From Clostridium sp. CAG:354_28_25 (lineage in GTDB: Bacteria > Bacillota > Clostridia > TANB77 > CAG-508), in contig MNRL01000019.1 in NCBI GenBank assembly GCA_001915925.1, positions 12,448-76,447 of the forward strand: 64,000 nucleotides of DNA. The letters are read 5' to 3'. This document shows positions 21 through 52,819 of this stretch, one piece after another. The translations under genes and the position numbers were made by a program. The notes under the pieces were generated by a model, which searched no databases, had not been told where the DNA came from, and saw nothing but the letters and a program-made list of their open reading frames with translations. Each line of letters opens with the position of its first letter. The stretch's first letter is position 1.

Positions 21-82
21 CAATAGGGATTAGAGGGACGTTCTTAAAATCCCGGTTTTACCGGGATTTTAAGAATAGTCCT
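21..82. repeat. Composite head-to-head copy of the GGGATTT/GGGGACGTTC/AAATCCC palindromic repeat family (AGGGATTAGAGGGACGTTCTTAAAATCCCGG + TTTTA + CCGGGATTTTAAGAATAGTCC); perfect 15-bp inverted repeat at 41-55/61-75
   Basis: Direct reading; matches the unit seen at 27268, 43631, 45028 and elsewhere. Confidence 0.7.
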
Positions 83-181
83 TTTTTAGTGCAAACATGC
101 AAAAGACTGGAGAAGACTTAGCAATTACTTTACTTATAAGCAAATAAATGGTATACTTTTAAGCGATAAAAGGAGAAAAAA

Positions 182-24170: not shown

Positions 24171-25271
24171 ATGAATGAAGAAAAGAAGAAATATTATTCT
24201 AGAATATTATTTAAAACAGGAGTATTAATATTTACTTTAGTTTTATTATACTTGGCATATAAATTTGCAATGTTTTATGTACCATTTATAATCGCGTTCT
24301 TAATTGCAACAATGATAGAACCATTAATAAAATTTTTTATGAATAAATGTAAAATGAAAAGGAAGGCTTCAGCGACTATTTCTTTAATATTAGTTGTTGT
24401 AATAATTGGTTCTTTACTTGCAGTGTTAATTTCTGCAATAATATCAGAATCAAAAGTATTACTTAATAATCTAAATTCATCAATGGATGGCGTATATAAT
24501 TGGGGAATGGAACTTATAAATAATTTTACTAGTGGAGAAATAGTTGTACCACAAGATTGGATTTCTACTGTACAAGATTCTTTAGGTAGTATTATAGATG
24601 TTGTAAAAAACATAGTGTATAGTTTCGCAACAGGAGTAATTAATTTTGCAGGACAAGTTCCAGGAGCAATTACATATACGATTATAACAATTCTTGCAAT
24701 AATATTTATGTGTTTTGATAGAGATTATGTTAAAAATTTATTAAAACAACAAATACCAAAGAAATGGCTTGAAAAAGCAAATGAAATAGTAGTAAAATCA
24801 TTAAAAATAATTTGGAATTACATAAAAGCAGAAGCAAGATTGTCATTATTATGCTTTATATTAATTACTATTGGATTAAATATTCTAAATTTATGTGGAT
24901 TTAATATAGAGTATGTCGCAATAATGTCTATCTTAATAGGATTTGTAGATTTGCTACCACTATTTGGTGCAGGTTTTGTTATGGTTCCTTGGACGGTAGT
25001 ATTATTAATACAAGGAAATGCACCTGCAGGAATTGCTGTGTTTGTTTTATGGCTTGTATGGTCTGTTATAAAACAATTCTTAGAGCCAAAATTTGTAAGC
25101 AAACAAATGGGAATGCATCCAATATTTACATTACTTGGAATGTATACAGGATTTAAATTGTTTGGTGTAATAGGTTTATTATTAGGACCAATTATATTCT
25201 TAGTTATACGAGAAGTATTTGCTAATAATGTTAATAAAGGTATATTAAAAGACTTTTTTGAATTAGAATAG
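24171..25271 (+). CDS. AI-2E family transporter (sporulation integral membrane protein YtvI-like)
   Basis: 366 aa polytopic membrane protein with UPF0118/AI-2E topology. Confidence 0.65.
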   Translation: MNEEKKKYYSRILFKTGVLIFTLVLLYLAYKFAMFYVPFIIAFLIATMIEPLIKFFMNKCKMKRKASATISLILVVVIIGSLLAVLISAIISESKVLLNNLNSSMDGVYNWGMELINNFTSGEIVVPQDWISTVQDSLGSIIDVVKNIVYSFATGVINFAGQVPGAITYTIITILAIIFMCFDRDYVKNLLKQQIPKKWLEKANEIVVKSLKIIWNYIKAEARLSLLCFILITIGLNILNLCGFNIEYVAIMSILIGFVDLLPLFGAGFVMVPWTVVLLIQGNAPAGIAVFVLWLVWSVIKQFLEPKFVSKQMGMHPIFTLLGMYTGFKLFGVIGLLLGPIIFLVIREVFANNVNKGILKDFFELE

Positions 25272-25321
25272 GGATTTTTGGGACGGTCCTAGGGATTTGG
25301 GGACGGTCATAAAATCCCTGT
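25269..25321. repeat. Tandem copy of repeat family: TAGGGATTTTTGGGACGGTCC + TAGGGATTTGGGGACGGTC + ATAAAATCCCTGTA; first TAG is the ytvI-like stop
   Basis: Direct reading; core variant GACGGTC instead of GACGTTC. Confidence 0.7.
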
Positions 25322-25335
25322 AGAAGGGCGTATAT

Positions 25336-26025
25336 ATGAATAATGAAGAAATTAGAAAAAAATTAATAGAACTAAGTGATGCCAAATATAAAGAATTTCA
25401 TTCTGGGCTATGCCCAGGAATGGATACAGAAATGCTTGGAGTTAGTATTCCAAAGGTAAGAAAACTGGCAAAAGAAATTATTAAAGATAATCCAGCAGAA
25501 TATTTAAAACAACCAGCAGAGGAATATTATGAAGAACTTTTATTACAAGCATTGGTAATTGCAAATCTAAAAATAGAATTAGAAAAAAAGAAAGAATATA
25601 TAATTAATTTTGTACCAAAAATAAATTGTTGGGCAGTTTGCGATAGTTTTTGTGCCGGTCTAAAAGATGCAGACAAAAATCAACAATTCTTTTGGAAAAT
25701 TATAAGTAAATATTTTAAATCTAACAAAGAATATGAAATAAGGTTTGCTATTGTAATGTTATTAGACCATTATGTAAAAGAAGAATATATAGACAAAATT
25801 TTTGAAGTCATAGATAATATCAAAAGTGAAGAATATTATGTGGAAATGGGAATAGCATGGCTTGTGGCAGAAATGTACATAAAATTTCCAAAACAAACGA
25901 TGAAATATTTAAAAAATTGTAATTTAAATAAATTTACATATAATAAAGCATTACAAAAAGCAAGAGAATCATATAGAGTAAGTAAAGAAGAAAAAGAAAT
26001 TTTAAATAAGATGAAGAAAAAATAA
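25336..26025 (+). CDS. DNA alkylation repair enzyme (AlkD/AlkC-like HEAT-repeat glycosylase family)
   Basis: 229 aa, helical repeat protein matching the DNA_alkylation family pattern. Confidence 0.6.
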   Translation: MNNEEIRKKLIELSDAKYKEFHSGLCPGMDTEMLGVSIPKVRKLAKEIIKDNPAEYLKQPAEEYYEELLLQALVIANLKIELEKKKEYIINFVPKINCWAVCDSFCAGLKDADKNQQFFWKIISKYFKSNKEYEIRFAIVMLLDHYVKEEYIDKIFEVIDNIKSEEYYVEMGIAWLVAEMYIKFPKQTMKYLKNCNLNKFTYNKALQKARESYRVSKEEKEILNKMKKK

Positions 26026-26040
26026 TAGGAGGAATATATA

Positions 26041-27270
26041 ATGAAAAAGCCAGAATTATTAGCACCAGCAGGGTCATACGAAAAGGCAAAGACAGCATTT
26101 AGATATGGAGCAGATGCTGTATATTGTGGTACATCATCACTATCTTTAAGAACAAGAGCAGAAATGAATGATGAGGCATTAGCAAAAACAATTGAATATG
26201 CACATAGTATAGGAAAAAGAGTACATGTTGCACTTAATATATTTGCTTGGGATACTAACTATGAAGAGATAAGAAAACAAGCAAAAATGTTACAAGACAT
26301 GAAGGCAGATGGAATAATCGTTGCAGATGGTGGAGTTGTGGAAACTGTAAAAGAATATGCACCAAATGTAGATATACATATAAGTACACAAGCAAATGTA
26401 GTAAGCTTAGAGTCAGCTAAGTTTTGGTATAAAAATGGGGCAAAAAGAGTAATTTTAGCCAGAGAATTAAACAAAGAACAAATAAGATATATGATGCAAA
26501 ACAAACCAGAAGATTTGGAAGTAGAAATGTTTGCACATGGTGCAATATGCTTTGGTTATTCAGGAAGATGTTTCTTAAGTGATTTCTTGGCTTGTAGAAG
26601 TGCAAACTTAGGGGATTGTGCACAAAGTTGTAGATGGGCATATAATTTATATGTAGAAGAGGCAAATAATCCAGGAAATTTAATGCCTGTAGAAACAGAT
26701 GAAAAAGGAACATATATCTTTTCATCAAAAGACTTATGCTTAATACACGAAATACCAGAAATTGTAGATATGGGACTTGATAGCTTAAAAATAGAAGGAA
26801 GATTAAAAACAGAATATTATTTAGCCACAATAGTAAATACATATAGAACAGCAATAGATGATTACGTAAAAGATCCTAAAAATTATAATGCAGATAAATA
26901 CATGCAAGAACTTGAAAAAACTAAAACAAGAGGATTAACAACTTTCTATTTTAATGACAGAAACAATAAAGATTTCCAAGAATATGAAGGAAAACAATAT
27001 AATCCAAATTTTGAATTTGGAGGAAAAGTAGTAGAAACAGTTAATGGAAAAACATCTGTAGAAATAAAGAATAAATTATCTGTTGGTGACGAAATGGAAA
27101 TTATAATTCCGGGAAAAATAGAAGTAGTAAAATTTGCAATAGAAAAATTATGGGATTATGAAACAGACGAAGAAATAGAAACTATAAATCCAGGAGTAAA
27201 AGACCAAAAAGTAAAGATGCAATTACCAATAGAAGTAAAAGAAGGTTGGATATTAAGAAGAAAAAAATAG
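26041..27270 (+). CDS. Peptidase U32 family protein
   Basis: N-terminal ELLAPAGS..AV.AGADAVY U32 signature. Confidence 0.85.
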   Translation: MKKPELLAPAGSYEKAKTAFRYGADAVYCGTSSLSLRTRAEMNDEALAKTIEYAHSIGKRVHVALNIFAWDTNYEEIRKQAKMLQDMKADGIIVADGGVVETVKEYAPNVDIHISTQANVVSLESAKFWYKNGAKRVILARELNKEQIRYMMQNKPEDLEVEMFAHGAICFGYSGRCFLSDFLACRSANLGDCAQSCRWAYNLYVEEANNPGNLMPVETDEKGTYIFSSKDLCLIHEIPEIVDMGLDSLKIEGRLKTEYYLATIVNTYRTAIDDYVKDPKNYNADKYMQELEKTKTRGLTTFYFNDRNNKDFQEYEGKQYNPNFEFGGKVVETVNGKTSVEIKNKLSVGDEMEIIIPGKIEVVKFAIEKLWDYETDEEIETINPGVKDQKVKMQLPIEVKEGWILRRKK

Positions 27271-27298
27271 GGATTGGGGGACGTTCCTTAAATCCCTA
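27268..27298. repeat. Single unit of repeat family TAGGGATT-GGGGGACGTTCCTT-AAATCCCTA (TAG = stop of the U32 gene)
   Basis: 8-bp inverted arms around the GGGGACGTTCC core. Confidence 0.75.
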
Positions 27299-27328
27299 TA
27301 TAAGAAAAGTGTTATAAGGGGGATACAT

Positions 27329-28396
27329 ATGATTAAATTAGATGAAGAAGCTATTTTAAAAAAGGTTGATGAAATTAGAGCTGAAAAAGCTGATTCAAAA
27401 GAGTTATTAGCATTAATTGGTGGAGATGAATTAGAAAAGATATTCGAGAAATATAGTATAGAAGCAATTATAGATACATTAATTCAGGAAAAGAAAACGC
27501 ATTCTTTATATGAGGATGATGAAAATGGATTAACTGAGTTAGAAGGACTATTAAATAAAAAAATCACAGGAAAGTTAGGAAAATTCTATATGATGAAACC
27601 AGAATATATTATATCTTTACCACCAGAAGAGCAGGAACATATGGCAGAAAGTATTTCTGAAGGTAATATAGATTTAAAAAATGCTTTGATGACATTATGG
27701 AAAAATGGGATAGAAACAAAAGCATGTGGTGGAGTAAGAACAAAAGAAGAGGAAACACCTTATATATATGTAAATGTTTCATTAAAAAATAGTGATATTT
27801 TAGGAAGATTAAATAATATTACCCAAAAGGGAGAAAATTATCTGGATTTATGTTTTGATGCAGGAGATGATAGTTTAGACATTGTAATAAAAGGTGAAAA
27901 TGTATATCAAGATGTAGTAGAAGAATTTCAAAAAGAACCACCTAAAAAAAACATTCTTGATTTTCTAGCAGAGGAACAATTATTAACAAGTACAGTTCTT
28001 GCTAAGCATATAGAAAATAATCAGCAATTAAAGTATACAGAAAAAGATGTTGAAGAGATTGTATTAGATACCGCAAAAGAGCACAAAGAACAAGCAGATA
28101 GAAATGAAGCTTTATTAAGAGAAAAATATGAAAATGAGATTAGAAGATTATCAAAGAAATTAGAAGAAGAGAAAAAAGAAAATGAAGAATTATCAGGTGC
28201 ATTAGAAAAAAAACAAGAAGAAAAAGAAAATTTACAACAAAAATATGATAAATTATATGAAACACATGGAAGATTAAAAAATTTTATTGTACGCAAAATA
28301 GGTAAGATACCGTTTTTAGGTAGAAGAGTTTTAAAACTTATGGAGACAGAAGTAAGAGCTTTACCAGAAGGAAAAGATGATACAGAGAGAGAATAG
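27329..28396 (+). CDS. Hypothetical protein with C-terminal coiled-coil/charged region
   Basis: 355-aa ORF bracketed by repeat copies. Confidence 0.5.
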   Translation: MIKLDEEAILKKVDEIRAEKADSKELLALIGGDELEKIFEKYSIEAIIDTLIQEKKTHSLYEDDENGLTELEGLLNKKITGKLGKFYMMKPEYIISLPPEEQEHMAESISEGNIDLKNALMTLWKNGIETKACGGVRTKEEETPYIYVNVSLKNSDILGRLNNITQKGENYLDLCFDAGDDSLDIVIKGENVYQDVVEEFQKEPPKKNILDFLAEEQLLTSTVLAKHIENNQQLKYTEKDVEEIVLDTAKEHKEQADRNEALLREKYENEIRRLSKKLEEEKKENEELSGALEKKQEEKENLQQKYDKLYETHGRLKNFIVRKIGKIPFLGRRVLKLMETEVRALPEGKDDTERE

Positions 28397-28417
28397 GGGA
28401 AATTTAAAAATCCCTAT
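28394..28417. repeat. Degenerate arm-only copy TAGGGGAAATTTAAAAATCCCTAT (TAG = stop of the 27329 gene)
   Basis: TAGGG/CCCTA arms without the GACGTTC core. Confidence 0.4.
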
Positions 28418-28434
28418 TCTATCGAGCAGCAAAC

Positions 28435-29795: not shown

Positions 29796-30350
29796 ATGAA
29801 AAAAGTAGCTGTAATGATTGCTGATGGAACTGAAGAGATTGAAGCTCTTACCGTAGTAGATGTTATGAGAAGAGCAAATATCAAATGTGATATTGTAAGT
29901 GTTAATGGAAGAGAAATAAAAAGTTCGCACAATATAGAAATATTAGCAGATAAAGTAATAGATGAATCTATTAAAGATTATGATATGATTGTATTACCAG
30001 GTGGTTTGCCAGGAGCATATAATCTAGCTGAAGATAAATTGTTAATAGAAACTTTAAGAGAATTTAGTAAAGATAGTAACAAATATATTGGTGCAATATG
30101 TGCATCACCAGCTATTGTTTTATCTAAAGCAAATATAGAAGAAGGAAAAAATATAACATCATATCCAGGTAAAGGATTCGAAGATTTATTAAAGAAAGCA
30201 AATTACACCGAAAATTTAGTAGAAGTAGATGGAAATATTATAACAAGTAGAGGACCTGCAACAGCAATGCTATTCGCATATAAACTATTAGATGTTTTAG
30301 GTCATAATTCTAAAGAAGTAAGTGATGGAATGCTTTGGAATTTATTATAG
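29796..30350 (+). CDS. DJ-1/PfpI family protein
   Basis: AICASP nucleophile elbow, 184 aa. Confidence 0.8.
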   Translation: MKKVAVMIADGTEEIEALTVVDVMRRANIKCDIVSVNGREIKSSHNIEILADKVIDESIKDYDMIVLPGGLPGAYNLAEDKLLIETLREFSKDSNKYIGAICASPAIVLSKANIEEGKNITSYPGKGFEDLLKKANYTENLVEVDGNIITSRGPATAMLFAYKLLDVLGHNSKEVSDGMLWNLL

Positions 30351-30354
30351 TGAA

Positions 30355-30378
30355 AAAAGGAACGTCCCTAAATCCCGA
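30355..30378. repeat. Reverse-orientation copy AAGGAACGTCCCTAAATCCCGAAGG that supplies the GGAGG RBS of the next gene
   Basis: Reverse complement of GGGATTTAGGGACGTTCC. Confidence 0.6.
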
Positions 30379-33849: not shown

Positions 33850-34050
33850 AACTTCCCTGCATAGTGCGTGTAGACTGGAATTTTAGAACCAACAAATTTT
33901 ATAAGGGAGTCCGCCTTTAAATGTGGCGTGCAAGCTTACACTTCTATTTAGTAGTAAGAAGCCCACAAGCATTTAACAAGACACCCACCTACGCGAGTAG
34001 GCTCTTAAAATTTCTAAACTTCTTACGGCTAAGGCGGGGTAAGTTTTTTT
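33850..34050 (+). ncRNA. Candidate structured non-coding RNA or leader (GC-rich, ends in intrinsic terminator CTTAC-GGCTAAGGCGGGG-GTAAG + T7); second hairpin GTGGC-AAA-GCCAC at 34096-34120
   Basis: About 45-50% GC island without an ORF in a 27% GC genome; alternative pairing CCGCCTT(33911-17)/AAGGCGG(34031-37) competes with the terminator stem. Confidence 0.3.
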
Positions 34051-42441: not shown

Positions 42442-42470
42442 ATTAAGCTTGTTATAAATTGGAGGATATA

Positions 42471-43625
42471 ATGGCAGAAAAAAGAGATTATTATGAAGTT
42501 TTAGGAGTTAATAAAAATGCAACAGATGATGAACTAAAAAGGGCTTTTAGAAAAATGGCTAAAAAATATCATCCAGATGCAAATCCAAATAATAGAAAAG
42601 AAGCAGAGGAAAAGTTTAAAGAAGTAAATGAAGCTTATGAAACACTTTCTGATCCTCAAAAAAGAAAGATGTATGACCAATTTGGCTTTAATGGTCCACA
42701 AGGATTTGGTGGTCAAGGAGCTGGCCAAGGTGGATATTATTCATATACTTCTAATGGGTTTGATGGATTTAGTGGCTTTGGAGATTTTGGCGATATATTT
42801 AGTTCATTCTTTTCTGGGTTTGGTGGTTCTTCTGGAAGAAGTAATAGAAATGGTCCAAAAAGAGGTAGAGATTTAAGACATGATTTAGAGATTACTTTTG
42901 AAGAAGCATATTCAGGAATAAAAAAGGAATTTGTTATAAATAGAAATGAAAAATGTACAACTTGTAACGGAAGTGGTGCAAAACCTGGAACAAATCCTGT
43001 AACATGTCCAAATTGTCATGGAACTGGTCAAGTAACACAAGTTCAAAACACAATATTAGGACAAATGCAAACAACTAGAACTTGTTCTGAATGCCATGGA
43101 ACTGGTAAAATTATAAAAGAGCCATGTACAACTTGTAGAGGAAGAGGAACAGTAAGGAAACAAGCAAAAGTTACTATAAATATTCCAGCAGGAATTGATG
43201 ATAATCAAACATTAATCTTGAAAAAAGAAGGAGAGCCAGGTGAAAGAGGCGGAGAAAATGGAGATATCTATGTAACAGTACATTTGAAGAGACACAGTAT
43301 TTTTACTAGAAAAGATAATAATGTATTATGCGATATTCCAATTACGATAACTCAAGCTACACTTGGTGCAGAACTAGAGATACCAATGGTAAATGGCGAA
43401 AAGGTAAAATATAAAATACCAGAAGCAACTCAAACAGGAACAAGATTTACTATACGAAATAAAGGATTTAAAGCTATTAATGGAAATTGGCAGGGAGATT
43501 TTATATTTACTGTTAATGTACAAACTCCAAAAAAACTAACAAAAGAACAAAGAGATTTATTGTTACAACTTGCTAAAACTATGAATGAACAACCTCCAGT
43601 AAAGAAAAGAGGATTATTTGGATAG
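42471..43625 (+). CDS. dnaJ: Chaperone DnaJ
   Basis: J-domain HPD (KYHPDAN), G/F-rich linker, four CxxCxGxG zinc-finger repeats; start at the Met after GGAGG. Confidence 0.95.
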
Positions 43626-43630
43626 AAATT

Positions 43631-43661
43631 TCGGGATTTGGGGACGTTGTTTAAATCCCGA
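43631..43661. repeat. Single unit TCGGGATTT-GGGGACGTTGTTT-AAATCCCGA located 6 nt after the dnaJ stop
   Basis: Perfect 9-bp inverted arms around the core. Confidence 0.8.
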
Positions 43662-43781
43662 TTAATATATATGAATCAAAAATGTCAAGATAGAATTTAT
43701 ATTTCTTTTCTTGACTTTTTTGATGCTAGTAAAAAAATTTAGCCAGACGAATGTATGATATTTCGTCTGGCTAAAAGATGG

Positions 43782-44631: not shown

Positions 44632-44937
44632 ATGAAACTTTTAAACGAACTAGTACAAAAAGATTTTACCGAGAAGATTTCCGATGGAATTGGAAAAGCA
44701 ATCTTGTTTCCAAAAGAAGCAAGCTGTATCCGGATAGAACCGGGAAAAGAAATTGAACTGCATCACCATGATAAGGACCATGAGATATATATGGTTTTAC
44801 ATGGAGAGGTTGTAATTTTAGGAAATCTATATAAGAAAGGAGAGTTTCATGTTTGCAATTGTGGCGAATCACACAATTGTAGAAATTCGGGAGCCACCGA
44901 AACCATATTGTTAACAATGAAGATAGACGCGGAGTAA
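44632..44937 (+). CDS. Cupin-domain protein
   Basis: HHHDKDHEIYMVLHGE cupin motif; GC-rich. Confidence 0.6.
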   Translation: MKLLNELVQKDFTEKISDGIGKAILFPKEASCIRIEPGKEIELHHHDKDHEIYMVLHGEVVILGNLYKKGEFHVCNCGESHNCRNSGATETILLTMKIDAE

Positions 44938-45027
44938 TCCGCGTCATTTTCATACTTATATATTACCTCAACTTAAACCGAAAATTACTTAGTTAATCTT
45001 ACGCATAGTTATAATTTGAATCAAAAG

Positions 45028-45058
45028 AGGGATTTTAAGAACGTCCCCAAAATCCCTA
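45028..45058. repeat. Reverse-orientation unit AGGGATTTT-AAGAACGTCCCC-AAAATCCCT
   Basis: 9-bp inverted arms around GAACGTCCCC. Confidence 0.8.
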
Positions 45059-45123
45059 AAGTACATATTGGCAAAAAGAAAATGTAGTGATATAATTTAG
45101 AAAAAATATGCGAAGAGGTAAAA

Positions 45124-46233
45124 ATGAAATACGAAGGACAATACGAAAAGCTAAATTTGCCAGCTTATATGAAATTTGGAATAGAAATAGAAGCTAATAA
45201 TGTTCAAACGAAAAATGGGTTATATGCTGGCGAAAGTGCGAAGTTTATAACCGATAGAAACTGGCATATGGCAACAAAATGGGAAGAAAGTTTAGTTGGA
45301 GAAAATGGAGCAGAACTTGTTTCACCAATTTTAACAGATACGGAAACTACATGGAGGAATATAGCAGAAATCTGTAGTAAGATTAAAGAATTTCCAAAAG
45401 ATAAAAGTAAAGAAGTTAAGGCAGACGAGAAATGTGGATTACATGTGCATTTTGATGCAGAATATTTATCAAGTGATCCTAAAAAAATGAAAAATTTTCT
45501 TAATATATATGCTGAAGCCGAAGAACTTATATATAAAATGTGTAATGATAAAAATGATCCAATACGACCTAAAGCTATAAACAAAAATTTTCATGGATTA
45601 TCAAATGTTATTTCTGCTATTTGGAGAAATGGTATGGCAACACCTACTAGCAAAAAAATATTGAAAAAGCTTAATAATGGAACGTTAAAGGTATCACATA
45701 AAAAATTTGGAAAATTAAGAATGGTTGCTAGTAAATTTAAGCTAGACGAAAGAAGATATGCAGGGCTTAATCTAACTAATATTGGAAATAGCAAGAAAAA
45801 TACCATAGAATTTAGGATGGCTAATGGAACACTTAATCCAGAAGTAATAAAACAAAATGTATTTTTATATGCATCAATTATAGATACAGCTGTGAAGATG
45901 ACAGAGAAACCAGAAAAATATGAACAAAAAATGCAAAAGTTTTTAAATCACGATGTTACAGAACAAGAAAAAGCACAAAGTTTTTTAAATTTGATTATAG
46001 ATTCTGACGAGGATAAAAAGATATATTTAGATAGATGGGAATCTGTAAAAGATGCTAAAGTTTTTTCTAAAAATGCTAGAAAGGGATTTGCAACAACTTT
46101 TAAAAGAGAAGAATTTAAAGATATAGCAACAAGAACTAAGGGAAGCAAGATAAGAGCAACATTTAATAAAATAAAAGATTTTGTATATGCCAAAGAAGAA
46201 AGAGGAGATAAAGAAGATAATGTTAGAACTTAG
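45124..46233 (+). CDS. Amidoligase-family (PF12224-like, GS-type) enzyme with lysine-rich C-terminal tail
   Basis: FGIEIE, ELVSP, GLHVHFD and TIEFRMANGT motifs in the order typical of the putative amidoligase family. Confidence 0.55.
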   Translation: MKYEGQYEKLNLPAYMKFGIEIEANNVQTKNGLYAGESAKFITDRNWHMATKWEESLVGENGAELVSPILTDTETTWRNIAEICSKIKEFPKDKSKEVKADEKCGLHVHFDAEYLSSDPKKMKNFLNIYAEAEELIYKMCNDKNDPIRPKAINKNFHGLSNVISAIWRNGMATPTSKKILKKLNNGTLKVSHKKFGKLRMVASKFKLDERRYAGLNLTNIGNSKKNTIEFRMANGTLNPEVIKQNVFLYASIIDTAVKMTEKPEKYEQKMQKFLNHDVTEQEKAQSFLNLIIDSDEDKKIYLDRWESVKDAKVFSKNARKGFATTFKREEFKDIATRTKGSKIRATFNKIKDFVYAKEERGDKEDNVRT

Positions 46234-50202: not shown

Positions 50203-52239
50203 ATGAAAATAATGGTAAATAAAGGAGAATTTAAAGATTTAATTCAAAGAGAATGGATAATAGCTAATGGAATAGGAGGATTTGCAGCATCTACAGTTAC
50301 AGGTGCCAACACAAGAAAATATCATGGGTTATTGGTTGCAGCACTAACACCTCCGGCAAGACGATTTTTAGTATTATCTAAGGTGGATGAATCTATAGAA
50401 TTTAATGGATGCAAATATCCTTTATATACTAATATTTGCGATAATTATATTTCTGATGGTTATAAAAGAATAGAATCATTCGAGAAAAAATATGTACCAA
50501 CATATACATATAAAATAGACGATATTTCTATCCAAAAGACTATAAGTATGCAATATGGTAGAAATACAGTTGTTATATTATACAATATTAAGAATGGAAA
50601 TTATGATTCAAAATTAACATTGGCTCCAATAATAAATTATAGAGATTTTCATCAAGTTAATAAAGATACAGAATTCAATTTGAAAGAAAATATAAGTGGC
50701 ACAAAAGTAAGAATAGTTGTAAAAAATGAAAGTCAAACACCATTTTATATGAAATGTTCAGAAGGAACATATATAGAACATCATAATGATATATTTTATA
50801 GGATGTTTTATATGGAAGAAGAAAAAAGAGGGTTTGACCCAATAGAAAACCATGCAATTCCAGGTAGATATGAGATAGAATTAAAACCAAATGAAGAGAA
50901 AAATATATCATTTGTATTTTCATTAGAAGAGAATATAGACGAAATAAAAGCAGAGGATGTTATTAAGCAAGAAGAGGTAAGATTAAAGAAGATAGTAACA
51001 GATACGGGCTTAATAAATGAAAATACAGAGGATAAAGAATTAATAGAAGATTTTATAATTACTACTGATAGCTTTATTGCATACAGACCATCATTTGGAC
51101 TTCATACTATAATTGCAGGTTACCCATGGTTTTTAGATTGGGGTAGAGATAGTTTAATAGCATTTGAAGGATTACTACTTAAAACAAAGAGATTTGATAT
51201 AGCAAAAGAAGTTTTACTAACATTTATTAGAGATATAAAATATGGGCTTGTACCAAATGGATATTCCGGATATGATAACAGACCATTATATAATAGTGCA
51301 GATGCTTCATTATTACTTTTTGAAGAAATAAAAAAATATATTAATTATACGAATGACTATAAATTTATAAAGGACAATTTTTATATTTGTTTAAAGAAAA
51401 TAATAGAGGCATATATTACAGGAATAGATGTAGATGATAATAATATTTATATGGAAAGAGATGGTTTAATTCATTCTGGAACAATAAATACCCAAAATAC
51501 ATGGATGGATGTAAAGATTGGAGATTTTGCAGTAACCCCTAGAAATGGAAAAGCAGTAGAAATAAATAGTTTATGGTATAATGCTTTAAAAATAATGGAA
51601 GAGCTTGCAAAAAAATTCGAAACTAAAAAAGTTGCAGAAATGTATGCAGAATTAGCAGAAAAAACTCAGAAATCATTTAATAGAAAATTTTATAATTCAG
51701 ACAAGAAATCATTGTATGATGTATTAGGTGATGACAGAATAAGACCAAATCAATTATTTAGTTTATCACTTAGTTACCAAGTTTTAAATCCAGCAGGAAA
51801 AAATGCTAAAGAAATTTTAAAAACTGTAACTAATGAACTATATACAAAACATGGATTACGTACTTTAAATAGAAAGGATAAGCAGTATATTGCTACATAT
51901 GAAGGAGATTCATACAGAAGGGATATAAGTTACCACCAAGGAATAACTTGGCCATGGCTTTTTGGATTATATAATGATGCATACAAGAATGTAATAGCTA
52001 ATACAAAAGAGGGGAAAGTTAAAGGTGAATTGCAAAAGCAGTATGACTTATTCGTTAAAAATTTAAGAGTAACAGCTAAAACAATGATGTATAAAGAAGG
52101 GTGTATATTAAGTATTGCAGAACTATATGACTCTAAACCTCCATATTTACCTAAAGGCGCTTTTTCACAAGCTTGGAGTGTTGCAGAAATATTTAGAATA
52201 ATATTAGATTCAAAAACAGAAGAAGAGGAAGGAAAATGA
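50203..52239 (+). CDS. Glycogen debranching enzyme (amylo-alpha-1,6-glucosidase, GDE_C family)
   Basis: 678 aa; GYPWFLDWGRDS motif. Confidence 0.8.
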   Translation: MKIMVNKGEFKDLIQREWIIANGIGGFAASTVTGANTRKYHGLLVAALTPPARRFLVLSKVDESIEFNGCKYPLYTNICDNYISDGYKRIESFEKKYVPTYTYKIDDISIQKTISMQYGRNTVVILYNIKNGNYDSKLTLAPIINYRDFHQVNKDTEFNLKENISGTKVRIVVKNESQTPFYMKCSEGTYIEHHNDIFYRMFYMEEEKRGFDPIENHAIPGRYEIELKPNEEKNISFVFSLEENIDEIKAEDVIKQEEVRLKKIVTDTGLINENTEDKELIEDFIITTDSFIAYRPSFGLHTIIAGYPWFLDWGRDSLIAFEGLLLKTKRFDIAKEVLLTFIRDIKYGLVPNGYSGYDNRPLYNSADASLLLFEEIKKYINYTNDYKFIKDNFYICLKKIIEAYITGIDVDDNNIYMERDGLIHSGTINTQNTWMDVKIGDFAVTPRNGKAVEINSLWYNALKIMEELAKKFETKKVAEMYAELAEKTQKSFNRKFYNSDKKSLYDVLGDDRIRPNQLFSLSLSYQVLNPAGKNAKEILKTVTNELYTKHGLRTLNRKDKQYIATYEGDSYRRDISYHQGITWPWLFGLYNDAYKNVIANTKEGKVKGELQKQYDLFVKNLRVTAKTMMYKEGCILSIAELYDSKPPYLPKGAFSQAWSVAEIFRIILDSKTEEEEGK

Positions 52240-52728
52240 GAATATTAGGAATTGACCCTGGGTTTGCAATAACACGGGTATAGCATAATAGATTACATAG
52301 GAAATAAATTTAAACTAGAAACATCTGGTGCAATATTAACAGAAGCTGGTGAATCTTTTCCGCTAAGGTTAGAGAAGATTTACACAGATTTAAATAATAT
52401 AATAAATACATATAAACCAGATGCGATGTCAATAGAAGAGCTATTTTTTAATAATAACGCAAAAACAGCTATTAATGTTGCTCAGGCAAGGGGAGTGATA
52501 TTAATAACAGCAAGAATAAACAAATTAGATATATTCGAATATACACCATTACAAATAAAGCAAGCAGTGACAGGATATGGTAGAGCAGATAAAATGCAAG
52601 TACAAAGAATGGTGAAAATGATATTAAATACAGAAAAATTACCAAAATTGGATGATATAACAGATAGTATGGCAATAGCAATTTGCCATGCACATTCATC
52701 TAAGTTTTCATCTCAATTTAAATTATAA
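52237..52728 (+). pseudogene. ruvC: Holliday-junction resolvase RuvC interrupted by an apparent +1 frameshift near 52274-52282
   Basis: MRILGIDPGFAITRV* then in the next frame YSIIDYIGNKF...AICHAHS; a single extra base restores the ITGYS reading. Confidence 0.7.
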
Positions 52729-52755
52729 TATGAATAGATGAATAGGAACAGGTGT

Positions 52756-52805
52756 TTTTGGGACGTTCCCAGACAGGGATTTTGGGGACGTTCCTTAAAT
52801 CCCGA
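52756..52805. repeat. Double-core copy TTTTTGGGACGTTCCCAGACAGGGATTTTGGGGACGTTCCTTAAATCCCG
   Basis: Direct reading between ruvC and holA. Confidence 0.8.
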
Positions 52806-52819
52806 AAAGGAAGATGGAT

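Follow-up and report, generated by a model that had tools for sequence, protein, structure and literature searches.

How does a gene come to end in the first letters of a repeat? The question is raised by a stretch of 64,000 nucleotides (nt) from contig MNRL01000019.1 of Clostridium sp. CAG:354_28_25 (hereafter the window), in which three consecutive genes terminate with a TAG that is also the first triplet of an arm of a short palindromic repeat. The answer which we hold to be most probable is that the repeat constitutes a family similar to the repetitive extragenic palindromes (REPs), specific to one clade of gut Clostridia, and that its copies lying flush with gene ends donate TAG stop codons. 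The first-pass annotation of the window had noticed the three stops and proposed that the arm itself provides them. The first point was confirmed by reading the sequence and the second by comparing orthologous gene ends, with the qualification that the third copy is a remnant which has lost its core.

In detail, TAG 25269-71 was found by direct reading to close the open reading frame (ORF) 24171-25271, whose orthologue is annotated as Pfam AI-2E_transport (YtvI-like), and to start a partial unit of left arm plus core (TAGGGATTTTTGGGACGGTCC, 25269-25289, plus strand); the repeat-free orthologues of this gene end with TAA. A full copy (TAGGGATTTGGGGACGGTCATAAAATCCCTG, 25290-25320, plus strand; read after TAGGGATTTTTGGGACGGTCC at the ytvI end as TAGGGATTTGGGGACGGTCATAAAATCCCT) lies directly 3′ of the partial unit and 15 nt upstream of the start codon of an alkD-like gene. 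It is matched at 25289-25324 by our covariance model R1 (46.7 bits, E 4e-13), and partial unit and full copy jointly (25269-25320) fold to -23.7 kcal/mol. Direct reading likewise places TAG 27268-70 at the end of ORF 26041-27270 (Peptidase_U32, hereafter U32) and at the start of the full copy TAGGGATTGGGGGACGTTCCTTAAATCCCTA (27268-27298, plus strand; model match 27267-27302, 47.7 bits, E 2e-13). The third triplet, TAG 28394-96, closes ORF 27329-28396, which encodes 355 amino acids (aa) with no Pfam match, and starts the degenerate copy TAGGGGAAATTTAAAAATCCCTA (28394-28416, plus strand; 14.1 bits, E 0.034), in which both arms are kept and the core is lost. This element differs from the word TAGGGATT and folds no better than shuffled sequences; full copies are found at the same gene end in the sister species L009, L014, L015, L056, and L057 (L numbers denote the compared loci and their lineages).

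Two further genes of the window, missed in the first-pass annotation, also stop in an arm. In the first, encoding a DJ-1/PfpI protein (29796-30350), the stop TAG 30348-50 belongs to a degenerate copy in reverse orientation (30348-30377, minus strand; the plus strand reads TAGTGAAAAAAGGAACGTCCCTAAATCCCG). Since the palindrome starts with TAGGG when read from either orientation, a reverse copy can still supply the TAG; this gene end reads TAGGG in other strains and TAA in the repeat-free orthologues L017-L020. The second is ytxC (57088-57936, minus strand), whose 3′ end contains a full copy (57094-57130) and an isolated arm, together spanning 57080-57130 on the minus strand (36.7 bits). The gene reads through the whole copy, encoding ...SGSRDVPKNPYLQ, and stops at TAG 57090-57088 of the isolated arm, where an exact match to the word TAGGGATT covers 57083-57090 (minus strand). 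The copy thus encodes the final residues of YtxC, SGSRDVPKNPY, which are followed by LQ and the TAG of the arm, that is, the protein has a repeat-derived tail.

The repeat is a near-perfect palindrome of ~31-35 nt with the consensus TAGGGATTTGGGGACGTTCCTTAAATCCCTATTT. Its unit is a 27-nt near-perfect palindrome, GGGATTT-GGGGACGTTCC-TTAAATCCC, which extends to 31 nt with the TA flanks and in most cases has TA to its left and TATTT to its right. A metagenome scan supplied ~85 unique full copies, whose consensus is T-A-GGGATTTGGGGACGTTCCTTAAATCCC-T-A-T-T-T or, by segments, T-A-GGGATTTG-GGGACGTTCC-TTAAATCCC-T-A-T-T-T, with T at position +3 in 91%. The RNA of the sense strand forms a 14-bp stem with two G-U pairs (-18.8 kcal/mol, z -4.7); the opposite strand reaches -13.0. 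Covariation of the outer flank pair (A-T vs C-G) was considered and found unsupported, the flanks varying independently. In the window, the core GGGACG[GT]T occurs 14 times, always at gene ends or between genes; the exact word TAGGGATT was observed 9 times vs 2.5 expected and the arm-plus-core pattern 8 times vs 0.3 expected. The covariance model, built from ~60 independent copies, recognized, within the window, 7 full copies at E <= 1e-9 as well as some weaker fragments. No paper containing the motif was returned by a literature search.

The evidence that carries the explanation comes from orthologous gene ends with a copy (filled) and without one (empty), taken from a set of 80 orthologous U32 loci from different species. 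The organism of the window is an uncultured member of the Clostridia known from gut metagenome-assembled genomes, and its relatives bear the labels "Clostridium sp.," "Clostridia bacterium," and Ca. Scatovivens. At five gene ends, namely those of AI-2E/YtvI, U32, the 355-aa gene, DJ-1, and the unlinked AccB, the copy-bearing lineages have TAG and nearly all the repeat-free lineages have TAA. At the four linked sites, TAG was found in 28/28 filled rows vs 1/33 empty rows, and the AccB loci extend both classes. AccB was picked afterwards as a test: TAG is found in L139, where the copy is flush, and TAA in three lineages without the repeat.

The U32 site is the most explicit one. The empty allele reads ...AGAAGAAAAAAA-TAA-actaaagataagg (RRKK-TAA-actaaag) and the filled allele ...AGAAGAAAAAAA-TAG-GGAAAT...AAATCCCTAT-AGAAGAAAAAA-TAA-actaaagataagg (RRKK-TAG-copy-...TAA-actaaag). 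The difference is a clean insertion of ~41 nt, with the ancestral TAA still present ~41 nt downstream. The C-terminal residues are the same in filled and empty alleles (LKDFFELE, RRKK, MLWNLL, and LFKIK). Compared in this way, these ends show that a flush copy itself supplies the stop, having replaced the ancestral TAA without any change of the C-terminus. A split-BLAST search for filled and empty alleles recovered only the sites that were already known.

TAG is not equally common at gene ends with and without copies. In the window, where 64 genes were called with a crude procedure, there are 42 TAA, 19 TAG, and 3 TGA stops. Where a core lies no more than 35 nt from the stop, eight of nine genes end with TAG vs 11/55 of the others (Fisher p = 1.3e-4), the single TAA case being a ruvC fragment. 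A wider test used the metagenome scan, which returned 112 human-gut loci with a pattern that omits the left arm and is therefore unbiased for TAG. After de-duplication of gene ends across all repeat-bearing loci, the repeat-adjacent ends comprise 36 TAG, 33 TAA, and 1 TGA (51% TAG) and the non-adjacent ends 111 TAG, 444 TAA, and 35 TGA (19% TAG), with an odds ratio of 4.6 (p = 1.9e-8). On the contrary, the supposition of the first-pass annotation that TAG is the rarest stop was incorrect: TGA is the rarest stop both in the clade and in 65 repeat-free relatives (5-8% in related loci and 3/64 in the window), and TAG amounts to ~19-20% in the two groups alike.

The placement of the copies follows the genes. 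Most frequently, the arm starts right at the stop (the mode, with 14/63 copies, or ~23/63 when the eroded arms TAGGA, TAGTG, and TAAGG are counted). With respect to the upstream gene, 63 copies are sense and 7 antisense, and at the convergent pair gpr/ytxC each gene has its own co-oriented copy, which indicates that orientation follows transcription. A terminator-like T tail follows 47/86 copies (55%), vs 21% of random positions and 16% on the opposite strand.

Several points weigh against donation of stops by inserted copies. The orthologue rows are phylogenetically non-independent, only five sites are available, and four of them lie within 5 kb; moreover, the genes were called by a crude longest-ORF rule. 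About half of the gene-proximal copies sit 2-20 nt past an ordinary TAA, so donation of the stop is frequent and not the rule. The role of terminator or stabilizer that copies may have is suggested by their T tails, and the copies at 25290, 27268, and 28394 have no such tail and were not flagged as terminators. Presence/absence polymorphism was not seen within the species, so that recent mobility of the copies is not demonstrated. No target-site duplication was detected, direct or inverted matches between the flanks being no better than permutations. Finally, no IS200/RAYT-like ORF (RAYT, REP-associated tyrosine transposase) and no ORF with HUH-plus-Y motifs was found among 1,449 ORFs in ~0.8 Mb around copies, a weak negative as the phmmer query was an approximate IS200 TnpA sequence, complemented with a regular expression for the HUH/Y motif.

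The strongest competitor, which we regard as possible rather than likely, places the TAG at the gene end by deletion. Copies would land a few nt past a TAA, and subsequent small deletions, the genome being compact and prone to them, would remove the spacer and the old stop until the copy is flush; the TAG of the element would be the last position that a deletion can reach without harm to the protein. Many copies indeed lie 2-12 nt past TAA (e.g., TAA-aa-TAGGG and TAA-tataa-TAGGG), arrays and arms are visibly unstable between strains, the 1-nt change in L012 described below shifted the stop of DJ-1 to the following TAG of an array, and a signature of insertion such as a target duplication is missing. 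The U32 site speaks against this route, since its old TAA lies downstream and not upstream of the copy, so that here the copy was inserted straight between the final codon and the stop. In addition, the residue-exact C-termini at all five sites would need very precise deletions.

A bolder proposal is that the repeat is a self-contained module of stop codon plus hairpin or terminator, placed precisely at stops by a Firmicutes mechanism other than RAYT, for example, one recognizing the stop and an A-rich context. It would rewire the termination and 3′-end formation of hundreds of genes, and the flush TAG would reflect targeting or selection instead of tolerance. We consider this proposal unlikely.

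Hardly better placed, and to our judgment slightly more doubtful, is the view that the hairpin is a selected RNA signal working together with UAG and kept for regulation, be it tuning of termination dependent on release factor 1, stalling and rescue, coupling to the next gene, or read-through. The sense-strand bias of 63 to 7, the G-U pairs that stabilize the hairpin in sense-strand RNA, and the start of the hairpin inside the footprint of the ribosome at the stop are consistent with such a signal; furthermore, REPs of E. coli that lie fewer than 16 nt away from a stop codon lower translation, according to a passage in PMC12306157. However, decay is visible in copies at stops (the one at 28394 has lost its core and the one at 30348 its right arm), one half of the copies stand at varying distances behind a TAA, and sister species differ in the presence of a copy at the same housekeeping gene. 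Neither recoding machinery nor extended downstream ORFs were seen.

It is very improbable that the element inserts preferentially beside TAG stops that already existed and does not bring the TAG. A weak TAG enrichment does persist when the flush TAGGR cases are left out (18/52 vs 111/590, p = 0.01), but this residue is explained, at least in part, by the erosion of arms (e.g., to TAGAATT and TAGTGATT). At each of the five sites, outgroups and lineages without the repeat end with TAA (a single empty row has TAG), the old TAA is kept at U32, and glgP alternates between TAG and TAA before the same array. Because the C-termini are identical in filled and empty alleles, such insertion is not the main cause.

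Least credible of all is a role of the copies as recombination sites, of integron attC or Xer type, bounding mobile gene cassettes, as in the cassette-like block 25336-28396 of the first-pass annotation: copies do lie at three consecutive gene junctions and alkD is variably present between ytvI and U32, but the order ytvI-alkD-U32-hypothetical is kept in species without copies at those junctions, alkD (25336-26025), an accessory gene, is missing in L018-L021 without any copy at the junction, copies stand behind hundreds of unrelated housekeeping genes, no integrase or recombinase occurs among the annotated neighbors, and the consensus has no GTTRRRY core site.

The explanation that we favor, a REP-like repeat whose flush copies donate stops, would proceed as follows. 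Copies would arrive by insertion, as the clean ~41-nt insertion at U32 suggests, and would be tolerated almost solely within the 0-20 nt that follow a gene. A copy that brings its own stop could lie flush with the 3′ end of the gene or slightly within it. It would then be transcribed in sense as the 3′ end of the mRNA and would fold into a hairpin of 12-14 bp. Around half of the copies, those with a U tail, are probably intrinsic terminators or 3′ stabilizers; copies inside operons, including the three treated here, have no such tail; more probably, they are carried along neutrally or modulate termination or coupling.

Only one clade of Clostridia, uncultured and from the human gut, carries the repeat family. 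In 516 kb taken from 65 species whose U32 is at most 75% identical, a model search detected no copy, none was found in the viral contigs of IMG/VR, and the plasmid collection gave no relevant match. Within the clade, the presence of copies is patchy among species with 89-99% identical U32. For instance, L015 and L016 have a copy at the U32 site, which is empty in L014 and L057, and the YtvI site is filled only in the species of the window, L009, and L056. The sites thus show that copies have been gained and lost individually between close species. By extrapolation, a genome of 1.7-1.85 Mb would hold several hundred copies. The genes that copies bracket are housekeeping genes.

Directly 3′ of U32 in L009, L015, L016, and L056, the element of the filled allele is followed at once by a second occurrence of the final ~12 nt of the gene, together with the old TAA. 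This echo resembles a target duplication of 12-14 nt and is absent at more than 60 other sites; when an echo of the last 15 nt of the gene was sought downstream of each copy, no signal was obtained. A duplication of TA at the TA/A of the TAA stop was ruled out, as the base after the right-hand TA is T (+3, 91%) and not A.

Copies are often organized in arrays. In a frequent layout, [left arm + core]n ends in just one right arm; one or more partial units in the same orientation precede 31% of copies, and most copies are singletons. An inverted partner accompanies ~9-14% of copies (within 70 nt, 8/85 downstream and 12/85 upstream). The number of units varies among strains of one species. At the DJ-1/PfpI end of L012, a 1-nt difference puts the stop at a position two codons further downstream, where the second TAG of an array of TAGGGAAATAGGGACG is used; arrays therefore offer back-up stops. 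Runs of (TAGGGAAA)n were found in L010 and L011. There, 3′ of U32 (L010 5228-5290 and L011 2185-2240), an 8-nt unit derived from the left arm (TAGGGAAA / TAGGAAAA) shows a microsatellite-like expansion between the stop and the copy.

Two more genes had been listed in the first-pass annotation as ending with TAG close to a copy. For gpr (56046-56981, TAG 56979-81) and glgP (TAG 63929-31), the proximity is correct, the stops lying 9 and ~10 nt upstream, respectively, but the TAG is not part of the copy in either case. Behind gpr, there is a core fragment and a copy in which a T run replaces the right arm (56991-57034, plus strand; match 56999-57034, E 0.0025), and the strains L092 and L093 have a different array at this position. 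Behind glgP, two tandem units of left arm plus core (63939-64000, plus strand) belong to an array that extends past the end of the window. In other strains, this array has 2-3 units closed by one right arm, and some of these strains, of the same species, have a TAA stop before it. Among L089-L096, the tandem units 3′ of glgP are strain-variable in both number (2-3 units) and sequence, and in L093 two extra small ORFs (37 and 72 aa, the latter matching DUF6290) precede pgi.

The remaining copies of the window are as follows. A full copy at 43630-43665 (plus strand, 43.7 bits) lies 7 nt past the TAG stop of dnaJ (42459-43625, identity confirmed by Pfam), and the spacer TAGAAATTT looks like an eroded arm. 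Another full copy, at 45023-45059 (minus strand, 44.4 bits), is antisense to both flanking genes, which encode, according to Pfam, a cupin (44632-44937) and an amidoligase (45124-46233). At 23-88 (plus strand), a full copy (23-59, 39.6 bits) and an inverted degenerate partner form a tail-to-tail pair with a T run at the end. Finally, a partial unit and a full copy occupy 52750-52809 (plus strand; model match 52773-52809, 39.1 bits), ~20 nt past the TAA stop of the ruvC fragment.

The ruvC gene itself (52236-52728) is seemingly frameshifted. Its N-terminus (MRILGIDPGFAIT) starts from ATG 52236, which overlaps the TGA of the upstream GDE gene, and the remainder (GYSIIDY..., Pfam RuvC positions 61-148) is in another frame, owing to one extra C (ACA-C-GGG). 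The sequence is the same in three other assemblies (L089, L090, and L094), which points either to a conserved +1 frameshift or to a fixed pseudogene. With Rfam 15, only 6S RNA was detected in the window at the gathering threshold (33851-34044, RF00013, 102.7 bits), and nothing lies over the copies at E <= 1. A gene for a DUF4912 protein on the minus strand contains imperfect tandem repeats at 60416-60584 (GTTGTTTTTGTAG...-type, five copies of 49 nt) and is strain-variable in length (317-326 aa). An apparent split of holA was rejected, being a difference of gene calling with unchanged sequence.

These results add a previously undescribed REP-like family in a common uncultured lineage of human-gut Clostridia. 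The filled and empty sites show that a dispersed repeat can overwrite the stops of housekeeping genes and bias stop usage. The annotation of gene ends is affected as well, since genes such as ytxC gain repeat-encoded tails. Array length differs between strains and therefore provides markers for strain typing, and the copies may mark likely 3′ ends of transcripts.

Dispersed non-coding repeats are known from several bacteria, like the miniature inverted-repeat transposable elements (MITEs), for instance, the Correia elements of Neisseria or the pneumococcal RUP and BOX elements, and like the mycobacterial MIRUs, whose ends overlap the stop or start codons of flanking genes. Correia, RUP, BOX, and MIRU elements measure 40-150+ nt, MITEs have target duplications, and BOX elements are modular, with a variable number of the internal unit. 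The Clostridia repeat is also dispersed and intergenic, is modular like BOX, and can overlap gene ends and alter 3′ untranslated regions, but it is only ~31 nt long and no duplication was detected. It is not a MITE: its arms act as inverted repeats, and no direct repeat of the flanks rose above permutations. Nor does it qualify as an integron attC site.

In Neisseria and Haemophilus, pairs of uptake sequences form rho-independent terminators. Similarly to such terminators, 55% of the copies of the Clostridia repeat lie in sense behind genes and have a hairpin with G-C pairs at its foot that is followed by a T run. In contrast to them, its T tract is short (TATTT) and missing from the copies inside operons. 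An origin by convergence is excluded because the 27-nt sequence is common to hundreds of sites.

Some Clostridia copies also form tail-to-tail inverted pairs (23-88 in the window and the DJ-1 site of L015) like the REPINs, the paired REPs of Bertels and Rainey (2011, PMC3116915). Inverted pairs are not, however, the predominant form, so that the family is not one of REPINs. REPs of E. coli within 15 nt of a stop down-regulate translation, as stated in the part of PMC12306157 that cites its ref. 17. These stop-proximal REPs share with the Clostridia repeat a stable hairpin starting in the footprint of the terminating ribosome, and in both a large share lies 0-20 nt from the stop. The two differ, as compared by sequence alone, in that the hairpin of E. 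coli comes after the stop whereas that of Clostridia frequently contains it.

The nearest parallel is found in the GTAG REPs of Proteobacteria and other phyla, whose terminal TAG is "often" the stop of the flanking ORF (Di Nocera, De Gregorio & Rocco 2013, PMC3733652). A repeat terminus that supplies a TAG stop has thus been known since 2013, and for this reason the conceptual gain is limited unless the mechanism of insertion proves new. The differences are several. In REPs, GTAG is an unpaired tag outside the stem, whereas in the Clostridia repeat the TA pairs with the 3′ TA and the G is the first base of the stem. Of the Clostridia copies, ~40-47% contain the TAG and a G stands before it in just 29%, so a GTAG tag is not a feature of the family. 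Unlike REPs, the copies often form direct arrays in which units of left arm plus core end in a single right arm, and, in contrast to the REP/RAYT systems, where the repeats flank a single-copy Y1 (HUH) transposase gene, no RAYT was found in ~0.8 Mb around copies with an approximate query. The surveyed hosts of REPs are Proteobacteria, Cyanobacteria, Chloroflexi, and the PVC group, with Firmicutes unmentioned in the surveys. On the other hand, the REP/GTAG systems (PMC3733652; Nunvar 2010, PMC2817692) and the Clostridia repeat are all short (20-40 nt), high-copy extragenic palindromes located mostly just 3′ of genes, some copies lie within the 3′ ends of genes, and no target duplication is seen in either. 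In conclusion, as an imperfect palindrome of 20-40 nt with a stem-loop, high in copy number, dispersed, and extragenic, the Clostridia repeat is a REP in the generic sense of the term.

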